From Heterodontus francisci (taxonomy: Eukaryota), in assembly GCF_036365525.1 (NCBI RefSeq), contig NC_090407.1, positions 11,847,441 through 11,911,440 on the forward strand: a stretch of 64,000 nucleotides of DNA, read 5' to 3'. The first letter of the stretch is position 1, and each line of letters begins with the position of its first letter. Under the pieces are notes generated by a model. The model was not told the origin of the DNA and did no database searches. It was given only the letters and a program-made list of their open reading frames with translations. The translations under genes and the position numbers were made by a program. This document shows positions 21,742 to 44,399 of this stretch, piece after piece.

Positions 21742-21857
21742 CTTGATTCCCTTACTGCCCAAAGATTTATCGATCTCAATATATTCAATAACTACAGCCC
21801 TTTGAGGTAAAGAATTGCAAATATTCACAAACATCTGAGTGATGACATTTCTCCTCA

Positions 21858-23830
21858 AGGAGGCGGTGGCGTAGTGGTGTTGTCACTGAACTAATAACCT
21901 AGCCACCCAGGGTATTGCTTTGGAGACATGGGTTCAAATCCCACCACTGCAAAAGGTGAAATTTGAATTCAATTAATAAATCTGGAATTAAAAGCTAGTC
22001 TAATAATGGCTGTGAAGTCATTGTTGATTGCAATCTGGTTGACTCTTAAATGCCCTCTGAAATTGACTAGCAAGCCACTCGGTTGCATCTAATTGCTATA
22101 AAGCCAATAAAGAATGAAACCCGATGGACCACTCAGCTTTGACCTAGGCACCAGAAATGACAACAGCAAACCCACCCCTGTCGACCCTGTAAAGTCCTCC
22201 TTACTAACATCTGGGGGCTTGTGCCAAAGTTGAGAGAGCAGTCCCACAGACTAATCAAGCACAATTCACTCAGTATGATATCAAAAAACAACTGAAGACA
22301 CTGGATACTGCAAAGGCTATGGGCCCTGCCAACATTCCAGCAATAGTACTGAAGACCTGTGCTCCAGAACTTGCCGCGCCCCTAGCCAAGCTACTCCAGT
22401 ACAGCTACAACACTGGTATCTACCTGGCAATGTAGAAAATTGCCCAGGTATGTCCTGTTCAAAAAGCAGGACAAGTCCACCCTGACCAATTACTGCCTCA
22501 TCAGTCTACCGTCAATCATCAGTAGAGTGATGGAAGGGGTTGTCCAAAGTGCTATCAAGTAGCAATAACCTGCTCAATTTGGGTTCTGCCATGGCCACTC
22601 AGCTCCTGACCTCATTACAGCCTTGGTTCAAACATGGACAAGAGAGCTGAACTCAAGAGGTGAGGTGAGAGTGACTGCCCTTGACATCAAGGTAGCATTT
22701 GACTGGGTATGGCCTCAAGGAGCCCTAATAAAACTGAAGTCAATGGGAAACAGGGGGAAAACTCACTGCTGGTTGGAGTCATACCTAGTGCAAAGGAAGC
22801 TGGTTGTGGTTATTGAAGGTCAATCATCTGAGCTCCAGGACATCACTGCAGGAGTTACTCAGGGTAGTGTCCTAGGCCCAACCATCTTCAGCTGCTTCAT
22901 CAATGACCTTCCTTCAGTCAGAAGTGGGGATGTTCACTGATGATTGCACAATGTTCAGCACCATTCATGACTCCTCAGGTACTGAAGCAGTCCGTATAGA
23001 AATGCAGCAAGACCGGGACAATATCCAGGCTTGGGCTGCTAAGTGGCATGTAACATTCGCACCACACAAGTGCCAGGTAATGACCATCTCCAACAAGAGA
23101 GAATCTAACCATCTCCCCTTGACATTCAATGGCATTACCATCACTGAATCCCCCACCATCAACATCCTGGGGGTTACAATTGACCAGAAACTGAACTGGA
23201 GTAGCCATATAAATACCGTGGCTACACGAGTAGGTCAGAGGCTAGGAATCCTGCGGTAAGCTACTCATCTCCTGACTCCCCAAGGCGTGTCCACCATCTA
23301 CAAGGCACAAGTCAGGAGTGTGATGGAATACTCTCCACTTGCCTGGATGGGTGCAGCTCCCACAACACTCAAGAAGCTCGACACCATCCAAGACAAAACA
23401 GCCCGCTTGATTGGCACCTCATCCACAAACATTCACTTTCTCCACCACTGACGCACAGTGGCAGCAGTGTGTACCATCTACAAGATGCACTGCAGCAACG
23501 CACCAAGGCTCCTTAGACAGCACCATTCAAACCCGCGATCTCTACCACCTAGAAGGACAAGGGCAGCAAATGGTTGGGGACACCACCATCTGCAAGTTCC
23601 CCTCCAAGTCACACACCGTCCTGACTTGGAACTATATCGCTGTTCCTTCACTGTCACTGGGTCAAAATCCTGGAACTCCCTTCCTCACAGCACTGTGGGT
23701 ATACCTATCTCACATGGACTGCAGCGGTTCAAGAAGGCAGCTCACCAGCAACTTCTCAAGGGCAATTCAGGATGGGCAATAAATGCTGGCCTGGCCAGCG
23801 ATGCCCACATCCCATGAATGAATAAAAAAA
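21858..23830 (+). mobile_element. tRNA-headed LINE (CR1/L2 group) with internal deletion of most of the endonuclease
   Basis: A box TGGCGTAGTGG (~21867) and B box GGTTCAAATCC (~21931); 5' UTR; KVLLTNIWGLVPK start, then a jump to RT (GPANIPAIVLKTCAPELA, QGSVLGP, FTDD); tail ATGAATGAATAAAAAAA. Confidence 0.85.
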
Positions 23831-24834
23831 GGTGATTTCCCTATCCTGGGTCTGAACCAGACTATTCAGCCAGGAGAAACAGCCTCTCACCTCTTGAAGA
23901 ATGCTATCTTTGCACTCTTCCCAAAGATTGACAATTCGGGCCTTGCTTCAAATTATTTATAATGTTCAATGCCTAAAGGATCACATCAGGGTTTCAGTGC
24001 TATGATGCAGGTAGATTTAATTGCTGGGTTTCTATGGAGACCTTAGAAGCAACCTTTGAAAAACCATGTGCAAATGGCAATCTGCAGTCCCTAATGTTCA
24101 CCACTGAGTGGCAATGTTCTCCAAGGAGTTTGAGGAAGTTTACATTCTTTACCAAAACACTAGTAAGATTTTAAGCTGCAAAGGCTGAAAATCTGTAAAC
24201 AATACAAAAAAAGCTGGAACAGCAGGTCGGCACTCGAAAGGAATGAGGAAAAAAATTGACATTGTGTTACAGAGTTTAGACAAAGAGCCTCTACTGAAAA
24301 TGTTAACCTACCTTTCCTCTGACGAATATTTCCAGAATCTTCACTTTCAATTTCAGGAAAGGCTAGTTTTTGATGGGATTTGATATTTTGCTGGGAGTGA
24401 TTTTTATTTTGAGTAACTCTTGGTCACCCTGTACCTGTCCATCTTGGTTGTAGATTGATTTCACAACTGGGGAAACAACACCAGGAAAAATGATCTGCTT
24501 GCTCACACCTCGAATTGTTCATGTGGTATAACCCATTCAGCACAATTTTCCCAGATCTGTTTCATTCTACGGATGGGTGTAACAGTAACACTCGCGGCTT
24601 TGGCAGCTTTCCTCCAAACACCCACGCGCTGGAGACTAACCACACTAAACAAATGTTCCCATAGAAACAGTCAGTGAGCAGCAAGCTTCAAAATGGCCCA
24701 TCAGTACCAATGCTGCGCCCACCGCCAAGGCAACAAGCCCAGAGCCAATGGGAAGCAAGATGGTGGACTGACCAGCCTTGTGCCCGCTCCAGTGCCATCC
24801 TTCCAGCAGCCGTCTGAGGAGACTACCTGATTCA

Positions 24835-27175
24835 TCAGGTTGCCAACCCTCCAGAATTATAGATTAATCTCCAGGAAACTGCTGTGAGCAAAATCCTGGG
24901 AGAAAAATCATTGTTGGCGGGTGGGGTTAAAATCTGTGGGGGTTTTTTACATTTTATTGGAAAACTTTTGTTTATTACATATAAAAATATCGGAGATGGT
25001 GGGTGAAAGCTTTTTTGACTGATAGTCAAGAATTATCCAGTTGGGTAAGAAACAATCTGCTTACTTTCCAATTGGTTGAGAGAGGTGGGGGTGCCGCAAT
25101 GATGGACATGTCAGGCCACCAATGGCGGGAGTGTGGTGGGGTGGTGTCGGGGTGGTTGTAGTCAGCAAGTCATGTCATGAAACTTCCAAGAATCGTAATA
25201 CTTTAGAAAGCCTAGAGGAGTATAGAAAGTGCAGGGGTGAAGTAAAAAAGGAAATTAGAAAAGCAAAGAGAGGACATGAAAAATTATTGGCAGGTAAAAT
25301 CAAGGAATACCCAAGATGTTTTATCAGTAAATTAAGAGCAAGAGGATAACTAAGGAAAGGGTAGGGCCTATCAGAGATGTACAAGGGAACTTATGTGTGG
25401 ATGCAGAAGAAGTGGGCAGGGTTCTTAATGAGTTTTTTGTCTCTGTGTTCGCAAAGGAGAGGGTTGATGTAAACATTGTAGTTAAAGAGGAGGAGTGTGA
25501 AATATTAGATACGATAAGCATAACGAGAGAGGAAGTACTAGAGGGTCTGACATCCTTGAAAGTGGATAAATGGCCAGGGCCGGATGGATTGCATCCCAGG
25601 TTGTTAAAGGAAGCCAGGGAGGAAATAACGGATGCTCTGAGGATCATCTTCAAATCCTCACTAGATACAGGCAAGGTACCAGAGGATTGGAGGTCTGCGA
25701 ACATTGTACCGTTGTTTAAAAAGGGTACGAGGGATAGGCCAAATAATTATAGGCCGGGCAGTCTGACCTCGGTGCTGGGTAAATTGTTAGAATTAATTCT
25801 GAGGGACAGGATAAACTGCCACTTAGAAAAGCACAGATTAATCAGGGAAAGTCAACATGGATTTGTTAAGGGATGGTCATGTCTTACTAACTTAATTGAG
25901 TTTTTTGAGGAAGTAACAAGGAGGATTGATGAGGGTAGTGCAGTGGATGTGGTCTACATGGATTTTAATAAGGCATTTGACAAGGTCCCGCATGGCACAC
26001 TGGTCAGTAAAATGAAAGCTTATGGGATACAGGGGAATGTGGCAGGTTGGATCCAGAATTGGCTCAAGGACAGGAAACAAAGGGTAGTAGTCGACAGATG
26101 TTTTTGTGACTGGAAGGCTGTTTCCAGTGACGTTCCACAGGGTTCAATGTTGGGTCCTTTGCTGTTTGTGGTATATATTAATGATTTGGACTTAAATGTG
26201 GGAGGTATGATTGGGAAATTTGCTGATGACACAAGAATTGGCTGTGTAGCTGATAGTGAAGAGGATAGCCATAGACTCCAGAATTATATCACTGGTTTGG
26301 TTGAGTGGGCGGGAAAGTGGCAAATGGAATTCAATCCGCAGAAGTGTGAGGTAATGCACTTGGGGATGGCAAATAAAGCGAGGGAGTACACAATAAACGG
26401 GAGGATATTGAGAGGAGTAGAGGAAGTGAGAGACCTTGGAGTGCATGTCCACAGGTCCCTGAAGGTGGCAGGACAGGTAGATAGAGTGGTGAAGAAGGCA
26501 TATGGAATGCTTTCCTTTATTGGCCGAGGTATAGAATACAAAAGCAGGGATGTGATGCTGGAACTATATAAAATGCTGGTTAGACCACAGCTGGAGTATT
26601 GCATACATTTCTGGTCACCACATTACAGGAAGGACGTAATTGCTCTGGAGAGAATACAGAGGAGATTTACAAGAATCTTGCCAGGGCTGGAAAATTGCAG
26701 CAATGAGGAAAGATTGGATTGGCTAGAGTTGTTTTCCTTAGAACAGAGGAGACCGAGGGGTGACTTAATTGAGGTGTATAAAATTATGAGGGGCCTAGAT
26801 AGAGTAACCATGAAGGACCTGTTTCCCCTAGCAGAGAGGTCAATTACCTGGGGGCACAGATTTAAGGTGATTGGTAGAAGGATTAGAGAAGACACGAGGA
26901 AAAGCTTTTTCACCCAGAGGGTGGTGGGTGTCTGGAATTCACTGCCAGGAACGATGGTGGAGGCAGAAACCCTCAATTCTTTTCAAAGGTACCTGGACCT
27001 GCACCTGAAGTGCTGTAACTGGCAAGGCTATGGACCAGGTGCTGGAAGGTGGGATTAGATTGGGCAACTAGTTTTTTTTCAGCCAGCACTGACACGACAG
27101 GCTGAATGGCCTCCTTCTGTGCGGTAATTTTTCTATGGTTCTTTGGAATACATCTGACCAATGTTGGCGACCATG
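24835..27175. mobile_element. hAT-like MITE split by a CR1 insertion
   Basis: TIR TCAGGTTGCCAAC/GTTGGCGACCATG; 8-bp flanks CTGATTCA/CTGATTTG. Confidence 0.7.
25397..27058 (+). CDS. Uninterrupted CR1 ORF2 reverse transcriptase and C-terminal region (5'-truncated copy ~25195-27145)
   Basis: 553-codon open frame: PGPDG, NYRP, QHGF, DFNKAFD, PQGS, FADD, DLGV; CR1 tail follows. Confidence 0.9.
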   Translation: MDAEEVGRVLNEFFVSVFAKERVDVNIVVKEEECEILDTISITREEVLEGLTSLKVDKWPGPDGLHPRLLKEAREEITDALRIIFKSSLDTGKVPEDWRSANIVPLFKKGTRDRPNNYRPGSLTSVLGKLLELILRDRINCHLEKHRLIRESQHGFVKGWSCLTNLIEFFEEVTRRIDEGSAVDVVYMDFNKAFDKVPHGTLVSKMKAYGIQGNVAGWIQNWLKDRKQRVVVDRCFCDWKAVSSDVPQGSMLGPLLFVVYINDLDLNVGGMIGKFADDTRIGCVADSEEDSHRLQNYITGLVEWAGKWQMEFNPQKCEVMHLGMANKAREYTINGRILRGVEEVRDLGVHVHRSLKVAGQVDRVVKKAYGMLSFIGRGIEYKSRDVMLELYKMLVRPQLEYCIHFWSPHYRKDVIALERIQRRFTRILPGLENCSNEERLDWLELFSLEQRRPRGDLIEVYKIMRGLDRVTMKDLFPLAERSITWGHRFKVIGRRIREDTRKSFFTQRVVGVWNSLPGTMVEAETLNSFQRYLDLHLKCCNWQGYGPGAGRWD

Positions 27176-27830
27176 CTGATTTGGATGGGAGCTTCGTTAA
27201 TTTATGCAAATTGGGCTCCTAGGATGTATATAAAATTCATTTTAACTGTCTGTTGGGCAGCGTGAGAATGGCACAAGAAGCCTGAAAAAGTAAGTGGTGA
27301 CATTTACTATTGTGGGCACAGGACTCCTCCCCCAGGCTGGTAAGTGGGGTTAAGATACTGATCAACTGTGATTTAATTGAATGGTGGAAGAGACTTGAGG
27401 GGTTAAATGGCCTAATCCTCTTCCTATGTGATTTGGGATAGATGAGGGATTGAATTTAGTTTCTGGGTTTATATGCTTCACTATACTGGGTATGGCTTTA
27501 TGCTCAACACTAGTCTTTATTTCCCAAGCATGATCAGCAGGGAACTGGGAGGGCAGTGCTCAAATGGAGAGTGACAACCATGAGTGCTATGCTGCCTGTT
27601 ACCTGATCTTAGGCCTCTCAATGGCCAAATGAAGATGAGGCCTACTTAATTGTGTAACTCTGGGTAGGCACCAAATTTAATGGCGCTGTTTATGTTTGGA
27701 GGGTGAAAGAGACCAGGAGTTAAACAGCACAGAAGTCAAAATCCCATTCCCTTCCCATATTTGTGTCTTTGAAACAATTTTGCTGGTCCATAATCTCACT
27801 ATAAAATTCCTTTATATTCGAACAGACTCA

Positions 27831-28553
27831 GGGCAGGATTTTCAGGCCCTGCCGAGATTGGGAATGGAGATAGACAGGGCCCGAAAATACCAGAACCGGT
27901 GGCATGTCGGTGTCCTGACCCTATTCCTGGTATCAGGCGGGTTCAGGGCCCGGCAGAGTTGCCCTCCTCCAAGGGGCAGGCAGCCAATTAGGCTCTTGAA
28001 GAGTCTTGTTAAAGGTACGTTTGGGAGGCCGACTGGGATTTTCCATTCGGCCTCCAGTTTCCTGACACAACAGGGAATAGATCAACTGGCTGGAGGTGGG
28101 CCGGGGATCCAGTGCTCCAGACAGGCCTTGAGGCCTTCCCTGCCTGCCTGGGTGTGGATGCAGTCAAAGGCCACTCTGTAGAGCTGCTTCCCCACAACTC
28201 CAACCCCCTTCCTCCCCCCCACCCCCACCCCTCCCCCAATGGTGGCCTGGTAGCCTTATTTATTACTTTTTTTTAATAAGTGGCTGAGAGGGCACCTGCA
28301 TGTTCATCCTTTCAGTTACCTACCTTCTACAACAGGCTGGTGCTCCTCTTAATTTGGAAGACCTCTGATTGGCCCTCCAGCTTCAAGAGCCCACCTGCTG
28401 CCCTTAATTGGATAGGGAACCTGTCTCCATGCCAATTCGGGGGGCACCCTGGTCAAAATGCCAATCAGCAACTGCTTCCCATTGGGAGGTGGGTTCAGGA
28501 CCTGGAAAAACACTCAGCTCTTGTTTTCCAACCCCCAAGTAAAAATTCAGCCC
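27831..28553. mobile_element. Harbinger-type MITE (older copy)
   Basis: TIRs GGGCAGGATTTT/AAAATTCAGCCC resemble those of 11564-12443; TSD not clean. Confidence 0.6.
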
Positions 28554-29569
28554 AAAGTGTCAGTGTTCAGCATCATTTGTCTGCTATTAGTTTGGTAAAT
28601 GTAACAATTTCTACTTCAGGATTTTCAGAACTGTGCATGTTCAAAACACCCAAATATTTGTCTAGACATGTTGCAAAAATCTTTACTATCAGCTGCTCTG
28701 ATGGGATTAATTCTCTTTCCATTGTTTCTGAGATTTCGCCACATGATGTCATTTAAAGAGAGGGCCCTGCCCAGCCCTCCTGTGCCTCTCTGTCAGCACA
28801 CTGTGTAAGCCCAAAACTTTCCTGTCCTAGCATGTTCATTCATCACACGACTTGCTCTCAGATGCACTTGCTCTCTCTACAAGATATTAGAAGTTGCTCT
28901 GGCTCTGCAGAAACAGGGGACATACGGCCTTTTTTAAACAGCTTTCCTTCCGGTTTCCTCCTCTGTGCCCCTGGAAGTTGGCGACTCTTATTGGGGTACC
29001 ATTCTGCAGTTTCAGTCACCAAACCCCCTCACCCGTTCCACCCAATTTAATTTACTTCACATGTCAGCTTAGACGGGAAAGTGATTCTCAGCTATTCAAC
29101 TGCAATCAACTTCGCAACCAAGCTTAATGCTGTTCTCATCAACACATCTGCCTTCCCCTGTAGGGACGGCTCGATAGCAGTCACCTCTCAGTGATTTTCC
29201 CCCTTTCCTAACACAAGGACACTGAGGTCAGATCTAACACCCCAACTGCCGCCCCCACTGAGGGGAGATAACTCAATGCTGATCAGCAAGTGTCCCTGGA
29301 ATCTTTCGGTCTGTCTGACCCAATACCAGAAGATATTTTTATCCAATGGATCCTTGTGGTAACTCAGGCCTCAAGGAGTGCACACACCTTTGATATTAGT
29401 AGTGAAGACACACTTAACGTTCTATCCATCATTTATACAAGTGAAAGGCACTGGTTGTATTTTGTTCTTATAATAAAGAATTCACACACGGGCACTGGGT
29501 CTATAACCCTATGTTAAGTGCATGTCTCGTCACAAACGTAATGAAATTACAGAAGTCTTGTCGCAAAGG

Positions 29570-30632
29570 GGTATTCTACAGGACAAGCAGGAAACTATTT
29601 AACCTACGTCACCTCCAGTCCAGAACCAAGGCCACTCCAACCTCTGTAATCAAACTGCAGTATGCTGGCGATGCTAGCGTATACGCACACTCAGAGGCCG
29701 AGCTTCAAACCCTTGTCGTTGCATTCACAGAAGCGTATAAAAGAATTGGACTTAAGCTAAACATCCGGAAGACAAAGTTCCTCTACCAGCCTGCTCCCCC
29801 AGCACAACTGCTCCCCAACTATCACTGGTCAATGTGGATCACTTCTCATACCTTGGGAGCCTCCTCTCAGCAAGGGCAGACATTGACGATGAAACTCAGC
29901 ATCGCGTCCAGTGTGCCAGCGTAGCCTTCGGTCGTCTGAGGAAAACAGTGTTTGACAAAAAAGACCTGAAGCCTGGCACCAAGCTAATGGTCTAAAGGGC
30001 TGTAGTGCTACCTGCACTCCTGTATGCGTCAGTAACATGGACACTGTACAGCAGACATCTCAAAGCCCTGGAGAGATATCACCAGCGGTGCCTCCACAAG
30101 ATCCTGCCAATTCAGTGGCAGGACAGGCGCTCCAATATCAGTGTCCTCTCTCAGGCTAACATCCCCAGTATCGAGACACTGGTCATGGCTAGTCAGTTAC
30201 ACTGGGCGGGCCACATCGTCTGCATGCCTGACACAAGACTCCCAAAACAAGCTTTCTACTCCGAGCTCGGTCACGGCAAGAGGCTACCAGGAGGGCAGAG
30301 GAAACACTACAAGGATGTCCTTAAAGCCTCCCTGAAAAAAATGTGACATCTCCACTGATTCGTGGGAATCTCTTGCCCGAGACCGCCCAAAATGGAGAAG
30401 AAGCATCTGCGAAGGTGCCAGCCAGTTCGAACAATGTCGACATGCCCAGGCAGCGACCAAGTGCAAACAGCAGAAGGACCATTTGGAAATTCAAGTATCC
30501 CATTCACTCGCCTCACCAAACACCACCTGCCCCACCTGTGGCAGATCCAGAATTGGACCAGTCACCTAAGGACCCACAATCCTGGAGTGAAAGAAAGTCA
30601 TCCTTGTTCCCGAGGAACTGCAGAAGAAGAAG
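29570..30632 (+). mobile_element. RTE-clade LINE 3' part
   Basis: KLFNLRHLQSRTK, LQYAGDA, YLGS, RLPKQAFYSEL..GKR.PGGQRKHYKDVLK; (GAA)n tail. Confidence 0.85.
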
Positions 30633-30639
30633 GTGATGA

Positions 30640-31045
30640 CAGCAGCATAGTGGATATGTTACTGGACTAGTGATCAAGAAGCCTGGGGTAATAATCCCGT
30701 GCATGAGTTCAAATGTGCAGCTCGGGAATTTAAATTCAATTAATTAAATAAATATGGAATAAGCTAACATAAGTAAACTACTGGATTGTCAGAAAAATCC
30801 ATCTGATTCACTAATGTCCTTTAAAATTTGCTGTCTTTACCTGATTTGGCCGATATGTGACTCCAGATCCACAGCAATATGGTTATATGGTTGGCTCATA
30901 ACTGCCCTCTGAAATGGTCTGACAAGCCACTCAATTCTATTTGAGATTGCAGCTCACCGCGACCATTTTCAGGGCAATTAGGGATGGGCAATAAATGCAG
31001 GCCTTGCCAGCGATGCTCACATCCTGTGAACAAACAAAAAAAAAC
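30640..31045 (+). mobile_element. Bipartite SINE-like derivative of the tRNA-headed LINE
   Basis: Decayed A/B boxes, LINE 5' UTR body, joined directly to the LINE 3' tail and an A-run. Confidence 0.7.
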
Positions 31046-31295
31046 TAGAGCATGATGTTATTGAGCCAAAAATAACATGAAATAGAAGCAGAAACTGCTG
31101 ATCCACTCCGTATCTTCAAACAAAAATGGCTCTAAGACTGCTATAGGAAGATGCTGTCCCCTTTAAGAAAATGTATGTTGTTGCAAGCGCACCTAACAGT
31201 ATCATGACTTCAATGTGACACATATCTGGTTCATCTGAATGTCATAGTTTCCCCCTGATAATCTGAATGCAAAAAACTGTCTGTTGTAACAGTTG

Positions 31296-33117
31296 TGGCT
31301 CAGTGGATAGCACTCGTCGCTGAGTCAGAAGCTTGTGGGTTCATGACCCACTCCAGAGACTTGAGCAAACCATTTAGACTAACACTCCAGTACTGAGGGG
31401 GTGCTGCACTGCAGAGGTGCCGTCTTTCGGATGAGACATGACAACTGAAGCCCCATCTGCCCTCTGAGGTGGATATAAAAGATCTCACAGCCACTATTGG
31501 AAGAAAAGTGGGGGAGTGCTCCCCGGTGGCCTGGCCAATATTTTTCTCTCAACCAACATAACAACATAAGAAATAGGAGCAGGAGTAGACCATACAGCCC
31601 CTCAAGCCTGCTCCACCATTCAATATGATCATGGCTGATCTTCTGCCTCAACTCCACTTTCCCACCCACTCTCCATATCCCTTGATTCCTTCAGAAACCA
31701 AAAATCTGTCTATCTCAGCCTTACGTGTATTCAATGATGGAGCATCCACAACCCTCTGGGGTAGAGAATTCCAAAGGTTCACAACCTTTTGAGTGAAGAA
31801 ATTTCTCCTCATCTCAGTCCTAAATGATCGGCCCCTTATCCTGAAACTGTGCCCATCTAGATTCTCCAGTCAGGGTAAACAACCTCTCAGTATCTACCCT
31901 AGCAAGCCCCTTCAGGATCTTGTATGTTTCAATGAGATCACCTCTCATTCTTCTAAACTCCAGGGAATATAGGCCCAATTTATTCAGCCTCTCATCATCA
32001 GACGACGCTCTCATCCCGGGTCCAATCTAGCAAACCTTCGCTGTACCGCCTCCAAGGCAAGTATATCCTTCCTTAAATATGGAGACCTAAACTGCACACA
32101 GTACTCCAGGTGTGGTCTCACCAAAGCCCTGTACAATTGTAGCAAAACTTCCTTATTCTTGAACTCCAATCCCCTTGCAATAAAAGCTGACATACCATTT
32201 GCTTTCTGAATTGCTTGCTTGTTCCTTATACAAGTACACCCAAGTTTCTCTGAACATCAGTACTTAGAAGTATCCTATCTTTTTTTAAAAATCTGCTTTT
32301 CTGTTCTTACTACCAAACTGAATAACCTCACACTTCCCTACATTATACTCAATCTGCCACCTTGTTGCCCATTCACTTAACCTGTCTATATCTCTTTGTT
32401 CTCCTCACAGCTTACATTCCCACCAAGCTTTGTATCATCAGCAAACTTAGATATATTACTCTCAGTCTCTTCGTCTAAATCATTAATATAGATTGTAAAT
32501 AACCGAGGCCCCAACACTGATCCTGGCAGCACTCCACTAGTTATAGCCTGCCAACTTGAAAATTCCCTGTTTATCCCAACTCTCTGCTTCATGTGTTAAC
32601 CAATCTTCTATCCATGCTAATATATTGCCCCCAACTCCATGTGCCCTTATCTTGCATGTTAGCCTTTTGTGTGGCACCTTATCAAATGGAAATCCAAGTA
32701 AACTACACCTACTAGTTCCCCTTTATCTACCCGATGAGTTATCCTTAAAAAACTCTAAACTTTGTCAAACACGATTTCCCTTTCATACAACCATGTTGAC
32801 TTTGTCTGACTATACTATGATTTTCTAAGTGCATTAAGACTTCCTCAATCATAGATTCCAGAATTTTTCTGATGACTGTAGTTCCCCATTTTCTCTCTTC
32901 CTCCTTTCTTGAATAGTGGTATTACATTTGCTTACTTTCAGAATAGATTATCTGGTTATTGTCTTAATTTTGCTTTGTGGGATCGTGCTGTGCACACATT
33001 GGCTCACTTCTCATTACTGACAATACAGAAGTGATATCACTTCCAAATTACTTCAGTGGCTGTAAAGGGATGTTCTGAGGTCATGAAAGGTGCTATCTAA
33101 ATGTAAGTCTTTCTTTG
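31296..33117 (+). mobile_element. DeuSINE-type SINE split by a minus-strand CR1 fragment (~31565-32940)
   Basis: SINE head and core at 31296-31560, remainder at 32940-33117; CR1 RT motifs (GSVLGP, FADD) in between. Confidence 0.8.
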
Positions 33118-33554
33118 CTTTCTAGAACATGGGAATAGAAGTATGCTATTCAGCTCATCAAGCCTCTTCCATAGCCCGTGTACAATCTACCCTATTATGG
33201 ACTCCAGCTCAGTCAGTGGATCTCGGGAACATTCTGCATGAGGTCTCCCTGTTCTCCACTGGCAATGAAAGCAAAACTCCAGAATATTTATCCACCTTCT
33301 CACTTTAAACTGTTCAAGCCATGAGACTATAAGAGACAAGGCAGCAAATGTTGAGAATCGGAAACAAAAACAGAAATTGCTGGTCTGCCAGCATCTTAAA
33401 ACAATTAACGATAAAACAGACTGTGGAGGGCTTCAACTCAAAACATTTAACCTGGTCAACTCCCTATCCTGTGTATTTCTAGTAATTTTTCCATAATTCA
33501 AGACTTGTTAGCCTCCAGAAACTATATGCTCCTCACCCAAAAGCACAGGACCAT

Positions 33555-36500
33555 AGCAAGTGTATAGAAAGTCCAGGAGTGAAATTAAAAAGATAAATAC
33601 TAAAGCAAAGAGATGGCATGCAAAAATATTGGGAAGTAAAATCAAGGAAAACACAAAGGTGTTTAATGAAAATATAAAGAGCAAGAGGATAACTAAGGAA
33701 AGAGTGGGGAAAATTAAAGACCAAAAGATAACCTGTGTGTGGAGGCAAAAGACTTGGGCATGGTTCTTAATGAATACTTTGCATCTGTCTTCACAACAGG
33801 TGGACAAGACAGATATTGTAGTTAAGGAGGAGGAGTGTGAAATATTGGATGACATAAAAAAGTGAGATGGGAAATATTAAAGGGATTCAGCATATTTGAA
33901 AGTAGGTATACCACCAGGCCCAGATGAAATGCATCCAAGGCTGCTAAGAAAGGGAGGAAATAACAGAGTCTCTAACCATCATTTTCCAATCCTCCCTGGC
34001 TACAGGTATGGTGCTGGAGGATTTTATTTTAAATATTTGTTCATGGAATATGGGCGTCGCTGACTAGGGCAGCATTTATTGTCCATCCCTAATTGCCCTT
34101 GAGAAGGTGGTAGTGAGCTGCCTTCTTGAACCGCTGCAGTCCATGTGGGGTAGGTACACCCACAGTGTTGTTAGGAAGGGAGTTCCAGGATTTTGACAGT
34201 GAAGGAACAGCAATATAGTTCCAAGTCGGGATGGTGTGTGGCTTGGAGGGGAACTTGCAGGTGGTGGTGTTCCCATGCATCTGCTGCCCTCGTCCTTCTA
34301 GGCGGTAGAGGTCGTGGGTTTAGAAGGTGCTGTCTAAGGAGCCTTGGTGAGTTGCTGCAATGCATCTTGTAGATGATACACATTGCTGCCACTGTAGACA
34401 GCGGTGGAGGGTGTGAATGTTGAAGGTGGTGGATGGGGTGCCAATCAAGCCGGCTGCTTTGTCCTGGATGATGTCAAGCTTCTTGAGTGTTGTTGGAGCT
34501 GCACCCATCCAGGCAAGTGGAGAGTATTCCATCACACTCCTGATGTGTGCCTTGTAAATGGTGGACAGGCCTTGGGGAGTCAGGAGGTGAGTTACTCTCT
34601 GCAGGATTCCTAGCCTCTGACCTGCTCCTATAGCCACAGTATTTATTTGGCTACTCCAGTTCAGTTTCTGGTCAATGGTAACCCGCAGAATGTTGATAGT
34701 GGGGGATTCAGCGATCGTAATGCCATTGAATGTCAAGGGGAGATGGATAGATTCTCTCTTGTTGGAGATGGTCATTACCTGGTATTTGTGTGGCACGAAT
34801 GTTACTTGCCACTTATCAGCCCAAGCATGGATATTGTCCAGGTCTTGCTGAATTTCTACACAGACTGCGTCAATAACTGAGGAGTCGCGAATGGTGCTGA
34901 ACATTGTGCAATAATCAACAAACATCCCCACTTCTGAACTATAATTGAAGGAAGGTCATTGATGAAGCAGCTGAAGATGATTGGGCCTAGGACACTACCC
35001 TGAGGAACTCCTGCAGTGATATTCTGGAGCTGAGATGATTGACTTCCAACAACCACAACCACCTTCCTTTGTGCTACGTATGACTCCAACCAGCGGAGAG
35101 TTTTCCCCCCGATTCCCATTGACTCGAGTTTTATTAGGGCTCCTTGATGACATACTCGATCAAATGCTGCCTTGATGTCCAGGGCAGTCACTTTTGCCTT
35201 ACCTCTGGAGATGAGCTCTTTTGTCCATGTTTGAACCAAGGCTGTAATGAGGTCAGGAGCTGAGTGGCCCTGGCAAAACCCAAACTGAGCGACAAGGGGG
35301 TGTTGATAGGGCAACTCTGACCCTGTCCTATCAACACCTTCCCTTTTGTTATCTCTTACCCCACCCCCACTTTATTTGCTTAAAACCTATTACACTTCTA
35401 GCCTTTGTCAGTTCTTATGAAATATCACTGACCCTGAAATGTTAACTCTGCTTCTCTCTCCACAGATGCTGCCAGACCTGCTGTGTATTTCCAGCATTTC
35501 TTGTTTTTATTCAACTTGATTGAATTTTTTGAGGAGGTAATAAGGAGGGACGATGAGGGTAGCATGTTTGATGTAGTCAACATGGATTTTAACAAGACTT
35601 TTGACAAGGTCACACATGGAAGAATTGTCTGAAAAGTAAATGCCCATGGGATCCAAAGAGAAAGTGGCAAGTTGGATCCAAAATTGGCTAGTGGCAAGAC
35701 GCAAAGGGTAATCATTGACAGGGCTGTTGTGACCGTTTCCCAATTGAGTACCAAAGGGCTCAGTACTGTGTTCCTTGCTTTTTGTGGTATATATCAATAA
35801 TATAGACTTAAATGTAGGGGGTACAATTAAGAAGTTTGCAAATAATACAAAAATTAGCCATGTGGTTGATAGTGAGGAAGAAAGCTGTAGACTGCAGGAA
35901 GATATCAATGGACTGGTCAGGTGGGCAGAAAAGTGGCAAATGGAATTCAATCCAGAGAATGTGAGGTAATGCATTTAGGCAGGGCAAACAAGGCAAAGGA
36001 ATACACAATAAATGGTAGGGTACTGCAAAGTGTAGAGAAACAGAGGGACCGTGGAATGCATGTCCACAGATCCTTGAAGGTAGCAAGGCAGGTAGATAAG
36101 GTGGTTAAGAAGGCCTATAGGATATTTTTCTTTATTAGCCAAGGCATAGAATATAAAAGCAGCAAGATTATGTTAGAACTGTATAAATGCTTGTTGAGCC
36201 ACAGCTAGAGACCTGCATACAGTTCTGATTACCATATTGCAGGAAGAGTGTATTTGCACTAATGAGGGTACGAAGAAATTGACAAGGATATTGCCAGGAA
36301 AAGGGAATTTTAGCTCTGAGGAAAAATTGGATAGGCTATGGTTGTTTTCTTTGGAACAGAGGAGGCTGAGAGAAGATTTATCAGAAGTGTATAAAATTAT
36401 GAGGGGCTTAGATAGAATGGTTAGGAAGGACCTATTTCCCTTAGCAGAGAGGTCAATAACCAGGGGAATAGATTGAAAGTAGTTCACAGAAGGATTAGAG

Positions 36501-36635
36501 GGGAGTTGAGTAGAATTTTTTTCACCCAAAGGGTGGTGGGGTTCTGGGACTCACTGCCTGAAAGGGTAGTAGAGGCAGAAACCCTCATCACATTTAAAAA
36601 ATACTTGGATATGCATTTGAAATGCTGTAATCTGG
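33555..36635 (+). mobile_element. Degenerate CR1 ORF2 interrupted by a LINE (34025-35292) and a Penelope-like fragment (~35330-35512)
   Basis: Co-linear with 25195-27050 on both sides of the insertions. Confidence 0.8.
34025..35292 (-). mobile_element. 5'-truncated copy of the tRNA-headed LINE family (RT and 3' tail)
   Basis: [36 protein letters not shown]. Confidence 0.85.
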
Positions 36636-36639
36636 GAAG

Positions 36640-37695
36640 TTAAACCAGGGCATGACATATACAGTGAATAGCAGGGCCCTGGGGAGTGTTCTTGAGCAGA
36701 GAGACCATGGGGTGCAAGTACATAGTTCCCTGGAAGTGGCAACACAGGTAGCCAGGGTGGTGAATAAGGCATATGGCATGCTTGCCTTCATCGGTCGAGG
36801 CATTGAGTACAAGAGTTGGGACGTAATGTTACAGTTGTACATAACGTTGGTTAGGCCGCATTTGGAGTACTGTGTGCAGTTCTGGTCGCCGAAACCCATC
36901 TGATTCACTAATGTACTTTAGGGAAGGAAATCTGCTGTCCTTACCTGGTCTGGCCTACATGTGACTCCAGACCCACAGCAATGTAGTTGACTCTTATATG
37001 CCCTCTGAAATGGCCTAGCAAGCCACTCAGTTGTATCTAACCGCTAGCACTGTGGGTGTACCTACCCCACATGGACGGCAGCGGTTCAAGAAGGCAGCTC
37101 ACCACCACCTTCTCAAGGGCAATTCGGGATGGGCAGTAAATGCTGGCCTGGCCAGTGATGCCCACATCCCATGAACAAATAAAAAAAACTACAGGAAAGA
37201 TGCTAGAGAGGGTACAGAAAAGATTCACGAGGATGTTGCCTGGTTTGGAGGGCTTGTTATAAAGAGAGATTGGATAGGCTGGGTCTGTTTTCCCTGGAGC
37301 GAAGGAGGCTGAGAGGAGACATGATAGAGGTGTATAAAATTATGAGAGGCATATATAGGGTAGATAGCCAGAGTCTGTTTCCCATGGTAGGGGTGACTAA
37401 AACTAGAGGGCATAGATTTAAGGTGAGAGGGAGGAGGTTTAAAGGGGATCAAAGGGGTAAATTTTTCACACAAAGAATAGTGGGTATCTGGAATGAGCTG
37501 CCAGAGGAGGTGGTGGAGGCAGGAACAGTCGCGACATTTAAGAGGCATCTGGACAGGTAATTAAATGAGCAAGGCATAGAGGGATATGGAATTAATGCAG
37601 GCAGGTGGGATTAGTATAGATAGGCATTATGGTCGGCATGGACGTGGTGGGCCGAAGGGCCTGTTTCTATGCTGTATGACTCTATGACTCTATAA
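36640..37695 (+). mobile_element. CR1 3' fragment with a nested bipartite SINE-like element (36892-37188)
   Basis: RPHLEYCVQFWSP is interrupted by the insert; (CTATGACT)n tail. Confidence 0.85.
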
Positions 37696-39439
37696 ATGTT
37701 CTATGTTTCCATATTGTTTCAGACTACTTGAACTGACTATCTAATCTGTCCCTATAATCAAGGCCACCAATCTACAGTTTTTAATGGACAAGTGGATGGA
37801 ATTGCAGATTTGGATTTCCCAAACAAAGCATTTGTCAAAATGTTCCTTATAATAATGAGAATTGGTCACCCTGCTTATAATCTCCAAGTATTGCCATGGT
37901 GTGCTGGTTGGGTCAAACTATAAAAGGTGTTCATTGGGACTCCTAGGGCAGTAAGTACATGCATAAAGCATCAAAAAACCAACATGTACACAGCAAGCTC
38001 CCACAAACAGCACTTAAGATAAATGAGCAAATAATCTGTTTTAGTGATGTTGGTTGAGTGATAAATACTGGCGAGGACACAGGGAGAACCTCTCTGCTTT
38101 TCTTCAAAATTGTGCCATGGTATCCTTTACTTCACTACAAGAGGGCAGACAGGGTCTCATTTTAACATCACATATGAAAGACGGGACCTCTGACAGTGCA
38201 GCACTCCCTCTTTGAGATGTTGGTTAAAAGGATAAATATTGGCCAGGACAACCGGGGAGCTTCCTGTTCCTCTTCAAAAAGGATCCTTTACATGAATTAG
38301 CATGCAGAGCCTCAGTTTAATATTCTCACCTGAAAGATGGCCCTACTGACAATGAGATACTCTCTCATTATAGCGCGGGAAATTTCTCTTAGATTATGTG
38401 CTTAGCCACAGAATTGGACTTTGAACCCAATTTGGAGGCAACCAGATTGTGTTTTTTATGGTCTGCCAGCTTCAATATAGAAAAAGCTGAAACACAGCTC
38501 TAGGGACAGATATGGCTTCCAACTATCCTTGCCACAAGTAGTGTTCGAAATGATCTTCCTCATTCCGTGATCTATGAATTCAGTGCTGAGACCATGAGCC
38601 AGGAACTTGGGTAACTGTTTGCCATACCTGGGGCGGTGGTGGGGTGGGGTGGGGGGTGCGGTGGGGGGGGGGTTGGTGGAGAAAGAGAGAGAGAAAGAGA
38701 ATGAGAGAGAGAAAGAGAAGAGCATTAAGTGCACAGACACAATCAGCAATTAAGGCAGGTTTCTCCCCTACCTAGGAGCTATTCTCTGTACAGAAACCTC
38801 CTGACTAGACTTGAATCCAAAAGGATAGATGAGTCATTGGCTGAAACCAAGAAAATTAGCACACATATCTGTCATCATCTTCCTTCAATCACTTTTCGCT
38901 TGTACCTCAAATTGAACAGGAGCCTTTCATCTTACACCTGACACATCAATTTGCAGCAAGTGCATGATGCGTCAACACTCTTGCCTCTTGTCCTATTCCA
39001 TGTCTTGAACACAATACTGGTATTCCAGTGCAGTATTGCGGAAGTACAGCATTATCACAGCTCCCACCCTTCAGACAGAGGTCCCATCTACGAAGGGGAA
39101 ATGGTTCAGGTGAATGTTAATGATCTCATGGTATTACTTGAAAAATAATACAAAGAAAAACTTTTCACACCTTTCACAATTTTAGGATCAAAACCAATTA
39201 AGTGCTCTTGAAGTGCAGTCACTTTTGTAGGAACATTGCAAGGTGTTCTCCTAGTGTCCTGGCCAACTTTTCCCTCCACTACCATCATGTGACTAGCTCC
39301 AAAAGCAGTTTAGCTAGTCAACCAGGCCATAGTTATTTGACAGAAATTATAAAATGGCTTCTGTTGTCTCCATAGCAATCACTGCATTTCAAAGTTATAT
39401 GTTAGGGATTTTGATGGAGTAAATAAGGCAAACTGGCAG

Positions 39440-39735
39440 GAAGGTCAGTAACCAGAGGACACAGATTTAAGGTAATTGGAAAAGAACCAGTGGAGGAGAT
39501 GAGGAGAAATGTTTTACACAGTGAGTAAAGATCTGGAATGCACTGCTTGAAAGGGCGGTGGAAGTAGATTCAATCGAACTTTCAAAAGGGAATTGGATAA
39601 ATACTTAAAAAGGTAAAATTTCCAGAGCTTTTGGAAAAAGCAGAGGAGTGGGACTAATTGCGTAGCTCTTTCAAAGAGCCAGCACAGGCACGATGGGGCA
39701 AATGGCCTCTTTCAGTGCTGCATGATTCTACGTGA
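39440..39735 (+). mobile_element. CR1 3' fragment
   Basis: TRGHRFKV-like end and CR1 tail. Confidence 0.75.
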
Positions 39736-40509
39736 GGTGCTTTGCAATGTTTCTGAGAGGCATGGAAAGGTGTTATGTAAATACAAGTCTTTCTTTTGTG
39801 TGGACAGCCACTAGAAACCCGAGTGGGAACACTAGGATGCTGATAAGAAGGAAGTCATCTCCTGAGCAAAATAGCACTGATTCATAAAAGTAATTTGGAT
39901 ATCACTAGTCCTCTGATAACTATGTAGAAGGTGAAAGCATTGCCACTTACCACAGTTATCTGCAAAGCCTAGATCTTCAGTCTCACAGAATGATTCCTCT
40001 TCTTGACACTGCTGGAATGTTATCAGCAGTCATCCTTTTCTCCTAGTCAACATGAAAACAATATGCACGAGATCAAACCTGTGATGAATCTCAAATTCAT
40101 TCGACGATAAGTCAAGCCAATTATACTCACCTTGGACTAACCATTGGTGAACCTACTTGTGGAATTCTAGGGGTGGGATTGGTCCTTGGTGGTACCACAC
40201 AAAATGGCTGACAGAGAATCATTCCACAGAAGACAATGGAATGGAAAATCAGGAAGGATGTAACACAGGCTGCTGATTCGCTATTGCCTGGTTTATATTT
40301 CCCCCCGCTGAGATCAATTTCACCTGCTCTATCAACAACAACTTGCATTTCTATAGCACCTTTAACATAGCAATACATCCCAAGATGCTTCACAGGGGGG
40401 TGGTATCAAACTGAGCACATAAGGAGGTATTAGTGCAGATGACCAAAGCTTGGTCAAAGGTGTAGGTTTGAAGGGGGAGGAAAGAGAGATGTATGGGCTT
40501 GGGGTTGGT

Positions 40510-40860
40510 AATTAGATTAGAGATACAGCACTGAAACAGGCCCTTCGGCCCACCGAGTCTGTGCTGAACATCAACCACCCATTTAGACTAATCCTACACT
40601 AATCCCATATTCCTACCAAACATCCCCACCTGTCCCTATATTTCCCTACCTCCTACCTATACTAGTGACAATTTATAATGGCCAATTTACCTATCAACCT
40701 GCAAGTCTTTTGGCTTGTGGGAGGAAACCGGAGCACCCGGAGAAAACCCACGCAGACACAGGGAGAACTTGCAAACTCCACACAGGCAGTACCCGGAATC
40801 GAACCCGGGTCCCTGGAGCTGTGAGGCTGCGGTGCTAACCACTGCGCCACTGTGCCGCCC
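40510..40860 (-). mobile_element. HE1-type V-SINE (young copy)
   Basis: A box TGGCGCAGTGG, B box GGTTCGATTCC, V-core GTGTGGAGTTTGCAAGTTCTCCC...GGTTTCCTCCCAC, CR1-derived tail. Confidence 0.85.
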
Positions 40861-43331
40861 TAATGCTGTTGAATGTCAAGGGGAGATGGTTAGATTCTCT
40901 CTTGTTGAAGATGGTCATTGCCTGGCACTTGTGTGGCGCGAATGTTACTTGCCACTTATCAGCCCAAGCCTGGATATTGTCCAGGTCTTGCTGCATTTCT
41001 ACACGGACTGCTTCAGTACCTGAGGAGTCATGAATGGTGCTGAACATTGTGCAATCAGCAGCAAACATCCCCACTTCTGACCTTATGATTGAAGGAAGGT
41101 CATTGATGAAGCATCTGAAGATAGTTGGGCCTTGGACACTGCCTAAGGGACTCCTGCAGTGATGTCCTGGAGCTCAGATGATTGACCTCCAACAACCACA
41201 ACCATCTTCCTTTGCACTAGGTATGATTCCAGCCAGCGGAGGGTTTTCCCCCTGATTCCCATTGACCTCAGTTTTGCTAGGGCTCCTTGATGCCATACTC
41301 GGTCAAATTCTGCCTTGATGTCAAGGGCAGTCACTCTCACCTCACCTCTTGAGTTCAGCTCTTTTGTCCATGTTTGAACCAAGGCTGTAATGAGGTCAGG
41401 AGCTGAGTGGCCCTGGCGGAACCTAAACTGAGCGTCACTGAGCAGGTTATTGCTAAGCAAGTGCCGCTTGATGGCACTGTTGATGACACCTTCCATCACT
41501 TTACTGATGATTGAGAGTAGGCTGATGGGGCGGTAATTGGCCGGGTTGGACGTATCCTGCTTTTTGTGTACAGGACATAGCTGGGCAATTTTCCACATTG
41601 CAGGGTAGATGCCAGTGTTGTAGCTGTACTGGAACAACTTGGCTAGGGGCGCGGCAAGTTCTGGAGCACAGGTCTTCAGTACGATTGCCGGAATATTGTC
41701 AGGGCCCATAGCTTTTGCAGTATCCAGTGCCTTCAGTCATTTCTTGATATCACGCGGAGTGAATCGAATTGGCTGAAGTCTGGCATCTGTGATGTTGGGG
41801 ACTTCAGGAGGAGGCCGAGATGGATCATCAACTCTGCACTTCTGGCTGAAGGTTGTTGCAAATGCTTCAGTCTTATCTTTCGCACTGATGTGCTGGGCTC
41901 CCCCATCATTGAGGATGGGGATATTTGTGGAGCCACCTCCTCCAGTTAGTTGTTTAATTGTCCACCACCATTCACGGCTGGATGTGGCAGGACTGCAGAG
42001 CTTAGATCTGATCCGTTGGTTATGGGATCGCTTAGCTCTGTCTATTGCATGCTGCTTATGCAGTTTGGCATGGAGATAGTCCTGTGTTGTAGCTTCACCA
42101 GGTTGACACCTCATTTTGAGGTATGCCTGGTGCTGCTCCTGGCATGCCTTCCTGCACTCTTCATTGAACCAGGGTTGGTCTCCTGGCTTGATGGTAATGG
42201 TAGAGTGGGGGATATGCTGGGCCATGAGATTACAGATTGTGGATGAGTACAATTCTGCTGCTGCTGATGGCCCACAGCGCCTCATGGATGCCCAGTTTTG
42301 CATTGCTGGTGATAGTGCCACACAACACGATGGACAGTATCCTCAATGTGAAGGCGGGACTTCGTCTCCACAAGGACTGTGCGGTGGTCACTCCTACCAA
42401 TACTGTCATGGACAGATGCATCTGCGGCAGGCAGATTGGTGAGGACGAGGTCAAGTACGTTTTTCCCTCGTGTTGGTTCCCCCACCACCTGCCGCAGACC
42501 CAGTCTAGCAGCTATGTCCTTTAGGACTCAGCCAGCTCGGTCAGTACTGGTGCTACCGAGCCACTCTTGGTGATGGACATTGAAGTCCCCCACCCAGAGT
42601 ACATTTTATGCCCTTGCCACACTCAGTGCTTCCTCCAAGTGGTGTTCAACATGGAGGAGTACTGAGTCATCAGCTGAGGGAAGGCGTTAGGTGGTAATCA
42701 GTAGGAGGTTACCTTGCCCATGTTTGACCTGATGCCATGAGACTTCATGGGGTCCGGAGTCGATGTTGAGGACACCCAGGGCAACTCCCTCCCTATTGTA
42801 TACCACTGTGCCACAACCTCTGGTGGGTTTGTCCTGCCGGTGGGACAGGACATACCCAGGGATGGTGATGGCAGTGTCTGGGACATTGTCTGTAAGGTAT
42901 GATTCCGTGAGTATGACTATGTTAGGCTGTTGCTTGACTAGTCTGTGGGACAGCTCTCCCAACTTTGGCACAAGCCCCCAGATGTTAGTAAGGAGGACTT
43001 TGCAGGGTTAACGGGGCTGTGTTTGCCGTTGTCGTTTCCGGTGCCTAGGTCGATGCCGGGTGGTCCGTCCGGTTTCATTCCTTTTTATTAACTTCGTAGC
43101 GGTTAGGTACAACTGAGTGGCTTGCTAGGCCATTTCAGAGGGCATGTAAAGAGTCAACCACATTGCTGTGGGTCTGGAGTCACATGTAGGCCAGACCAGG
43201 TAAGGACAGCAGATTTCCTTCCCTAAAGGACATTAGTAAACCAGATGGGTTTTTACAACAATCGACAATGGTTTCATGGCCATCATTAGACTAGCTTTTA
43301 ATTCCAGATTTATTAATTAAATTCAAATTCC
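40861..43331 (-). mobile_element. Longest copy of the tRNA-headed LINE family: 5' UTR, APE endonuclease, RT; head and 3' end missing
   Basis: TNIWGL, ILTESYL, GDFN, LDLVLTN, SDH, then RT motifs; only ~330 bp separates the 5' end from the endonuclease. Confidence 0.88.
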
Positions 43332-44399
43332 AGCACAGAAGGAGGCCATTTGACCCATTGTCCCTTTGTCAGCTCTTTGAAAGAACCAACCAATTAGCTC
43401 CACTCCTCCACCCTTTCGCCATTGCCCTGCAATTCTAAAGTATATATCCAATTCCCTTCAGACAGTTACTATTGAATCAACATCGCTAAAACAGATTATC
43501 TGGTCATTACCACATTGCTGTTTATGGGATTTTGCTGTGTGCAAATTGGCTGCTGCTTTTCCTACATTACAACACTGACTATGCTTCAAAATTATTTCAT
43601 TGACTGTAAATCACTTTGGGATGTCCTGAGGTTGTGAAAGTTGCTATATAAATGCAAGTTCTTTCTATATAGATAAAGCATGTTGGGTAGCCGTGGATGA
43701 TGTGGTAAAGAGCAATATTCTGGGTGATGGCTCTTTATCTCATTTAAACCTGTGGTATGTGTGAGATGTCACCAAGACATCACTGAATTGCATGAGGCCC
43801 ATTGCTACCCAATGAATAAAACACTTTCAAAGTGAAAAGGCCAGAATTATGAAAGGGTGTCGTCCTAGCATTGACAACGAACAGCATGAACATTGCTGCA
43901 GGTATCTGCTCTGTAATTGGTGGTAAGACATTCATGCCAATCTTATATGTTTATTTTAGTCCCCTCCTCCCTCAGCAGCATCTCTGAAAAGCATCCAAAG
44001 TTGGAAGCAGCTGGTAGTTTGGCATTCACCCTAGTTGTCATATTCTGCCCGCACGAATGATCAGGCTTCACCACCAGCTGTGTGGCACTAAATGGTTTTA
44101 CCTGGCACAGAGCTGTTCAACATACTGCCTGCAGGAGAATCCCAGCCCACACAACAAAGTAAAATGAATTCAGAGACAAGTCCCGAACACTTTATTGTCC
44201 AACAGTTTGGCCCATTAGCAACATTTGCTGGCAGACTGATCCTTCACTCCTGCCAGAGCTTCCATTCGTGTTTGGCAAAGATGAAGTTGGCCCTGCCAAG
44301 TGGTGAGTGACGTCATTGTTGGCTGTGGCTTTGGCTGTGCCGTCGATTGTGGCCATGGTTGTGGCGTTCTGTCGCAGACCATTTAAGTAGCAGCTTGGT

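Follow-up and report, generated by a model that had tools for sequence, protein, structure and literature searches.

R2 is a non-LTR element with a single ORF, made without Pol II, uncapped and reportedly translated without a conserved AUG; Pol I makes it as part of the rRNA transcript, from which a ribozyme frees it, and it inserts site-specifically with a restriction-like endonuclease. The working rule is that LINEs are Pol II transcripts that code and SINEs are Pol III transcripts that do not. “SINEs cannot encode a protein”, according to Kojima 2018 (PMC5786205). The same source describes tRNA-derived SINEs on bipartite RTE/Vingi LINEs, in which a small-RNA head is joined to the 5' and 3' parts of a non-coding, deleted LINE. 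Lepidopteran Zenon, a single-ORF 3.3-kb LINE of the CR1 group, yields 5'+3' deletion forms, the SIDE Persaeus, described as having neither tRNA homology nor a Pol III promoter (PMC6740152). Elasmobranch Zenon elements are reported to be ORF1-less with a poly-A tail (Stuart et al. 2026, PMC13343379), and according to that paper the loss of ORF1 is not unusual in the group, since Rex1 and L2 of clade B are without it just as Zenon is. An unconventional start of the endonuclease–reverse transcriptase (EN-RT) after an upstream stop, by termination-reinitiation, is described for LINE-1 ORF2 and SART1 (PMC5972666). A study of coelacanth tRNA-SINEs found no LINE partner for them (PMC4255032). Among the papers found by searching, as judged by titles and the starts of abstracts, none describes an autonomous LINE with a Pol III head; an earlier description elsewhere is possible.

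The window analysed here, 64,000 nucleotides of Heterodontus francisci contig NC_090407.1, contains several copies of one element (Table 1). The two originally singled out, copies A and B, are decayed copies of an abundant 3.3-kb Zenon LINE of sharks and rays with a fixed A/B-box head. Pol III probably transcribes this LINE from end to end, and its translation probably begins at a non-AUG codon just downstream of the conserved 5' UTR. Copy A (88-91% identical to the family majority) begins with an A box and a B box, as had been noticed in the original prediction. It aligns with element nt 5-174, 267-501 and 1699-3296 at 21861-22030, 22030-22261 and 22264-23830; its deletions, of nt 175-266 and 502-1698, removed 92 nt of UTR and 1.2 kb of EN and linker. 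The statement that copy A runs through a short UTR directly into the endonuclease holds for the start of that domain (22191), but the copy is doubly deleted and only ~24 EN residues are left. The endonuclease-start sequence KVLLTNIWGLVPK lies at 22191 (+) in copy A and at 43001 (-) in copy B. Copy B, 96% identical to the family majority, lacks the 3' end and, as predicted, the head, being 5'-truncated at element position 101; its other end adjoins another SINE at 40860. Its UTR of ~330 bp before the endonuclease, with no room for an ORF1, was confirmed. A search for the older subfamily gave mostly young copies. Canonical CR1 copies are also numerous in the window.

Table 1. Features of the Zenon family in the window (positions of the whole stretch).
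Feature	Position	Strand	Remarks
3' fragment of the Zenon family	14241..14452	-	
Copy A	21859..23831	+	both ends of the 3.3-kb element complete; two internal deletions
tRNA-derived head, copy A	21859..21957	+	Thr-like among compared tRNAs; 20-nt insertion between boxes
A box TGGCGTAGTGG, copy A	21867-21877	+	read in sequence
B box GGTTCAAATCC, copy A	21931-21941	+	read in sequence
In-frame AUG (22050) and family-wide UAG (22068-22070), copy A	22050..22070	+	
Endonuclease start (KVLLTN...), copy A	22191..22261	+	ended by deletion
RT half, 3' UTR and short A tail, copy A	22264..23831	+	AATAAA at 23778-23783
Old SINE-like deletion form	30635..31044	+	head and UTR joined to 3' 106 nt
5'-truncated copy (element 2026-3299)	34022..35294	-	
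Younger deletion form	36892..37188	+	fuses element 181-335 to 3155-3297; no head in this copy
Copy B	40861..43332	-	element nt 101-2603: 5' UTR, EN, most of RT; RVT_1 match
123-nt basic leader, copy B	43002..43124	-	spans UAG to endonuclease
Mini-ORF MPSEMA and UAG, copy B	43125..43145	-	in frame with EN-RT
Old degraded copy, earlier subfamily	48628..50475	+	69-86%

The family is abundant in the shark genome, and its 3.3-kb element carries a single EN-RT frame of 975 codons. Among 60 genomic copies chosen solely by their endonuclease start, 40 have the tRNA-like head ~426 nt upstream of it and the remaining 20 are truncated within the UTR. The 5' end is sharp, 34 of the 60 copies starting within 8 nt and 28 at nt 1; it lies 10 nt upstream of the A box and 430 nt from EN. 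Both element ends are present in 30 of the 60, so that the combination of head and EN-RT, originally deduced from two copies, exists intact in single copies. Copies with an ORF1, with another 5' end or with the head as an independent adjacent insertion, the counter-cases of the original prediction, were looked for in the same set and none was found; in no pair of copies is the sequence next to the element's 5' end shared. It had also been proposed to search for head and EN-RT inside one TSD pair, but the family shows no TSDs above chance (27 full copies, mean of 1.8 nt versus 1.6 nt for mismatched flanks). The A tail is short (~10 nt) in the copies inspected and follows AAUAAA by ~45 nt, an arrangement also compatible with Pol II. 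Runs of at least four T precede the A in 12 of 65 tails; the combined T and A length stays at ~10, which fits drift of the boundary after insertion rather than the trace of a Pol III terminator.

The head has the hallmarks of a tRNA-type promoter. Of 79 copies, 33 have the A box in its majority form, and CpG decays are the most frequent of its other forms; the B box is GGTTCGAATC or CpG decays of it in 78 of 89; the two boxes are 53 nt apart. Among the Thr and Lys tRNAs with which it was compared, the head resembles tRNA-Thr(TGT) of the H. francisci genome with a z of ~6; it may derive either from a SINE or directly from a tRNA. Neither ARAGORN nor Rfam called it as a full tRNA, and no Rfam model reached its gathering score anywhere in the window, head and UTR giving only chance matches. 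On folding, the head alone scored well (z of -4.2), and sliding windows over the UTR body revealed no outstanding structure (z of -1.5 or above). An unsupported possibility, judged by eye, is a small pseudoknot about the UAG hairpin.

The proposed check of the sense strand for terminators gave none: the 3.29 kb of the family majority contain no run of T4 or more, where base shuffles give 4.5 (P=0.011) and codons drawn at third-base frequencies 3.9 (P=0.014), and such runs are absent from 73 of 108 single copies. The strand is T-poor overall (20% T), the frame is without a TTA codon, and with codon usage fixed the deficit (0 versus 2.1 expected, P=0.087) is not significant. T4 runs occur in 5/5 other LINE frames of the H. 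francisci genome (2.8-4.1 per kb) and in 41/41 related metagenome frames (2.3-16.7 per kb), although these 46 controls come as single copies from other, more T-rich families; none of them contains an A/B box pair. An autonomous LINE transcribed by Pol II, with the head serving as a Pol II promoter or with host read-through, the boxes a relic and the lack of T4 a product of T-poor coding, is an unlikely account. In its favour, LINEs are regarded as products of Pol II (PMC5786205), an AAUAAA stands ~45 nt before an A tail, the T4 deficit weakens under synonymous shuffling and a capped RNA would be easier to translate. Host read-through, however, would not give a single sharp 5' end just before the A box, the boxes are preserved in sharks and a ray, all 46 control frames carry T4 runs, and ten upstream AUGs argue against cap-dependent scanning. 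In contigs from sequencing runs of other organisms, whose status as RNA is guessed and which carry no start, strand or level information, the element is covered from the 5'-end bin in 3 of 4 runs, and UTR-to-tail junctions are seen.

The 975-codon frame matches Pfam Exo_endo_phos_2, Exo_endo_phos and RVT_1 above cut-off, and its catalytic motifs are readable in the majority sequence. Variants common to at least 10% of 108 copies comprise 46 synonymous, 30 replacement and 0 stop changes, compared with 550:1640:92 among singletons (P=4e-11). Source copies have thus kept their EN-RT frame under purifying selection, indicating that the family is autonomous; this and the head as fixed 5' end support the first of the two readings originally offered, here that of an autonomous LINE lacking ORF1 and headed by a tRNA-derived sequence. 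The second, a non-autonomous SINE-LINE chimera carrying a dead EN-RT and moved by another LINE, is very improbable. It would accommodate the lack of an AUG-opened frame, the abundance of canonical CR1 copies in the window and the finding of no fully intact copy (the longest open frame among 150 scored has 916 codons), but not the purifying selection, the lack of a shared stop in source lineages or the open majority frame. Moreover, no headless partner with an ORF1 was present among the 60 copies, and the RT of the resident CR1s is no more than 29-32% identical to that of the family and falls in a different clade.

The claim that there is no in-frame AUG is incomplete: copy B has in-frame AUGs at 43145 and 43133, and copy A at 22050, directly followed by a UAG (43127-43125 in copy B) that is family-wide. 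At this stop, TAG stands in 77 and TAA in 2 of the first 100 among 2554 genomic matches; no other in-frame AUGs precede the stop, and the first Met beyond it is residue 285. The basic leader of copy B, its copy-specific stop (TAA, 43010-43008) and the out-of-frame AUG (43078) were all found as described. The sense codons at the UAG (20 GAG/AAG and 7 CAG copies) have no linked sites and are scattered over the tree, which does not fit a sense-codon master subfamily; CCTAG is a general mutation hotspot (5-13% at other sites), matching these codons.

For the same Pol III-type element, initiation at the AUG of AUG-GCC-UAG, with the UAG read through or edited, is unlikely. The motif, extended to AUG-GCC-UAG-CAA, is preserved in six published consensuses, on which conservation of the UAG in other species rests. 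Its frame is that of EN-RT in 111 of 124 copies, and inspection by eye gives the same for white shark, catshark and stingray; the sole length variant shared in the leader is exactly -3 nt (13/124 copies), and 3 of the 4 variants shared in the leader are synonymous (P=0.07). By eye, however, the frame from UAG to EN looks broken in the dogfish consensuses, which have a shifted spacer and another stop (TAA) six codons downstream, and in whale shark, whose spacer is 4 nt shorter; the consensuses may contain errors in this A-rich spacer. The non-coding SINE form keeps the motif too, and TGG, the trace of editing, occurs in only 1 of the first 100 of the 2554 matches. Initiation at the out-of-frame AUG (MKPDG...) followed by a -1 shift into the endonuclease frame is improbable. 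This AUG, present in six consensuses, follows an A-rich spacer in good context, and no shared variants occur at the 125 non-CpG sites between it and the stop codon of its frame, but several older copies have ATA or TTA in its place and the stretch up to KVLL has no canonical slippery heptamer. Taken together, the tRNA-type promoter, the absence of T-runs and the lack of a usable start codon make a Pol III-transcribed, protein-coding element likely; we infer both the transcription and the translation route, a non-AUG start being the likeliest.

In this respect the family resembles R2, with its single ORF, probable independence from Pol II and lack of a conserved AUG, and differs from it in that Pol I/rRNA co-transcription, the ribozyme, site specificity and the restriction-like endonuclease are R2 features. 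LINE-1 ORF2 and SART1 are a precedent for an unconventional EN-RT start after an upstream stop, but have a long ORF1 upstream, a capped Pol II RNA and an ORF2 AUG (PMC5972666). Family motifs were found in the Zenon rows of Table S2 of PMC13343379, where the first 400 nt were compared by eye. These rows are 3244-3314 nt long, and head and AUG-GCC-UAG are present in the first 400 nt of the six full elasmobranch consensuses and absent from those of hagfish and coelacanth. The Zenon-1 elements of CarCar, RhiTyp, ScyCan, HypSab and SquAca are likewise ~3.3 kb, without ORF1 and with poly-A, and their first 400 nt, in which both head and UAG lie, are nearly identical to those of the family. The main text of that paper, in contrast, does not mention tRNA, polymerase III, promoter or start codon, and the head, the lack of T4 and the missing start are undescribed in it. 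In an RT tree of proteins other than named Zenon, the family groups with unnamed relatives (support 1.0), apart from the resident CR1s; it differs from canonical vertebrate CR1 in having no ORF1 and no close kinship to esterase-bearing CR1. With SINE2 it shares the A/B-box head and the absence of internal T4, but the full 3.3-kb element is not short, non-coding and non-autonomous, as its deletion forms of 0.3-0.43 kb are.

These short head-plus-tail deletion forms are SINE-like. The junction of the 30635..31044 form has 67 exact matches and marks a family of its own. The UTR body and tail of the Zenon family may resemble those of LF-SINE; Rfam gave no match, and the coelacanth Zenon consensus is headless in its first 400 nt. 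The deletion forms parallel Persaeus (PMC6740152), except that they inherit a tRNA-type promoter, and the RTE/Vingi SINEs (PMC5786205), except that the shark head also stands on a full coding element. SacSINE1, with an L2 tail (PMC5499810), was not matched to them.

In the proposed cycle, TFIIIC and Pol III would use the internal boxes, so that each full copy keeps its promoter, and transcription would extend through the short A tail, or else the RNA would be polyadenylated at AAUAAA. On an uncapped RNA with ten upstream AUGs, ribosomes would be recruited internally or by reinitiation after AUG-GCC-UAG. The EN-RT protein would act in cis by target-primed reverse transcription and could in trans mobilise the head-plus-tail deletion forms as ready-made SINEs. 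The fuller picture, of an autonomous coding retrotransposon transcribed over 3.3 kb by Pol III, translated without AUG from uncapped RNA, kept in sharks and rays, giving rise to complete SINEs by single internal deletions and possibly the lost parent of LF-SINE, is about as likely as not. If true, a LINE on a tRNA promoter, with terminators purged from a 3-kb frame and no start codon, would break the LINE/SINE rule; it would provide for study a naturally occurring messenger RNA made by Pol III, together with a translation signal that needs no cap, and would show a one-step route to SINEs in which head, body and tail come from one parent.

Two decayed copies of a 3.3-kb LINE family had been described in the original prediction as a LINE with a tRNA-derived head and no ORF1, the frame usual in CR1/L2-group LINEs, and re-inspection of the sequence bore out its account of both stretches. 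In copy A, deletions have removed 92 nt from the UTR and 1.2 kb from the frame, and copy B ends at an unrelated SINE beyond which its 3′ part was not found. The TAA at 43010 is private to copy B, as proposed, but the claim that no AUG is in frame overlooked two in-frame AUGs in this copy (43145 and 43133), with a UAG immediately after (43127).

Features of the window (element nt, positions on the family majority sequence; EN, endonuclease)
Feature	Position	Strand	Remarks
Copy A	21859-23831	+	A box 21867, B box 21931, KVLL (start of EN) 22191
Copy B	43332-40861	-	element nt 101-2603, 96% identity
Older head+tail deletion form	30635-31044		~430-nt family; element nt 1-324 (85%) + 3194-3299 (94%)
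Second deletion form	36892-37188		junction differs from the older form
Unrelated tRNA-headed SINE	40510-40860	-	ARAGORN match 40784-40856; adjoins copy B end exactly; presumably HE1/V-SINE-like
Further copy of this SINE	near 45709-45852
34-nt tandem array	20756-21870		~30 units; immediately 5′ of copy A
Canonical CR1	15440-19123	-	GDSL esterase ORF1 remnant, 18455-19123
Canonical CR1	25331-27058	+
Canonical CR1	35507-36550
Host-gene coding exon, ankyrin repeats	8695-9162	-	presumably espin-like; next to the minisatellite
21-nt minisatellite	7580-8870
Gypsy-like LTR element remains	1653-3105	+	integrase zinc-binding domain
32-nt tandem array	10805-11390
23-nt tandem array	59885-60137

An EN query of the 6.0-Gb genome gave 80,619 candidate matches, 150 of which were scored, and 60 copies were drawn from these (the 40 top-listed and 20 with long open frames), the 5′ end playing no part in the selection. 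The head lies ~426 nt upstream of EN in 40/60 of these EN-selected copies. A common 5′ end is evident, with 34 copies starting within 8 nt of it (28 exactly at nt 1) and the remaining 26 truncated at scattered points from nt 15 to 411; both element ends are present in 30/60. Pairwise comparison of 5′ flanks revealed no two with common sequence abutting the element, and TSDs in 27 full copies did not exceed chance expectation. A majority sequence built from 29 near-full copies comprises 3,299 nt with one 975-codon frame, whose first Met is residue 285, and Pfam endonuclease and reverse transcriptase (RT) domains were found in one real copy. The sharp common 5′ end, the unrelated flanks and the head-EN spacing thus identify the head as the element’s own 5′ end and the family as one without ORF1, supporting the predicted architecture. 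The closest named proteins are shark proteins. Pieces of the element lie inside predicted shark proteins (an aldo-keto reductase and a sushi-domain protein), probably as gene-model artefacts or exonisation.

Non-CpG variants were counted in the 108 of 120 fetched copies that span >2.4 kb. Variants shared by at least 10% of copies split 46:30:0 into synonymous, replacement and stop changes, compared with 550:1640:92 among singletons (P = 4e-11). This difference in ratio means that the source copies were selected for the protein, and it marks the element as autonomous.

Counted from the 5′ end, the A box starts at nt 11, with the B box following 53 nt downstream. The head aligns to tRNA-Thr(TGT) of the same genome with a 20-nt insertion (z ~6; comparison set, 8 distinct Thr and Lys genes). 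The sense strand contains 0 T4 runs, T stretches of the Pol III terminator type, and A4 and C4 runs number 12-13. Base shuffling predicts 4.5 T4 runs (P = 0.011) and a third-base draw 3.9 (P = 0.014); when codon usage is held constant the expectation falls to 2.1 (P = 0.087), a result that counts against a Pol III reading. Single copies without any T4 run number 73/108. Among other LINE frames, five from this genome display 2.8-4.1 T4 runs per kb, and 41/41 metagenome LINE frames (those of at least 600 codons, from 80 loci) display 2.3-16.7, these control frames being single copies richer in T than the family; none of the 41 metagenome frames has an A/B box pair. Judged from these signals, Pol III transcription from the head boxes is likely. 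In the 3′ tails of fetched copies a run of 0 to 9 T precedes the A run, T(n)A(m), and the summed length n+m stays close to 10, which suggests that the T/A boundary drifted after insertion.

The older deletion form has 67 exact junction matches, and comparable junctions were seen in sequencing-run contigs of other organisms. The LINE could have acquired its head from such a SINE, or the SINEs may derive from the LINE; the occurrence of two different junctions within the window favours repeated deletion. These sequences may resemble LF-SINE.

Exact genomic matches numbered 2,554, and in the first 100 of these the family-wide stop site read TAG in 77, TAA in 2, GAG/GAA in 12, CAG in 6, and AAG, TGG and TCG in 1 each, and a control T was altered in 4. 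The sense codons were rejected as a subfamily marker, as the sense forms do not define one. T>G at CCTAG amounts to 5-13% at other sites of the element on either strand, against <1% for T sites overall. CCTAG is a strong context mutation hotspot in dead copies of this genome, and the source copies had the UAG.

Ten AUGs precede EN. Read-through from AUG-GCC-UAG is compatible with this genome, where 111/124 copies keep the motif in frame with EN-RT and the shared indel is -3, and with three other consensuses. Judged by eye, it does not fit dogfish, which has a second stop, or whale shark, whose spacer is 4 nt shorter. Translation from an out-of-frame AUG in the leader, the segment between UAG and EN, is at odds with several older copies, from which this AUG is missing. 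The least contradicted route would be a non-AUG start in the leader, via internal entry or reinitiation. R2 is one precedent for such an unconventional start. LINE-1 and SART1 are others (PMC5972666).

The family is a known Zenon. In an RT tree of 71 sequences, none of them named Zenon, it groups with unnamed relatives at 43-46%, apart from resident CR1s; a basic leader, there opened by Met, is present in the best relative too. Elasmobranch Zenon has no ORF1 and a poly-A tail according to PMC13343379, from whose main text the terms tRNA, polymerase III, promoter and start codon are absent. Among the consensuses of that study, the same head opens the white shark, whale shark, catshark, stingray and dogfish Zenons and AUG-GCC-UAG occurs in 6/7 from elasmobranchs, whereas the hagfish and coelacanth Zenons have no head within the first 400 nt. 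Persaeus is described as a deletion form of insect Zenon without a Pol III promoter (PMC6740152). No earlier description of the SINE-type promoter and missing start of Zenon was found in the literature searched, where one stated rule is that LINEs are Pol II-transcribed and SINEs cannot encode protein (PMC5786205). With its fixed tRNA-derived head, this LINE would be transcribed by Pol III and translated from a non-AUG start, and we regard the combination of a 3.3-kb single-ORF Zenon, a tRNA-derived head, Pol III transcription and a non-AUG start as fairly probable. Intact ORF2 counts of Zenon are near zero (0/2313, 1/1419 and 3/612; PMC13343379 Table S3), and the absent start codon may contribute to them.
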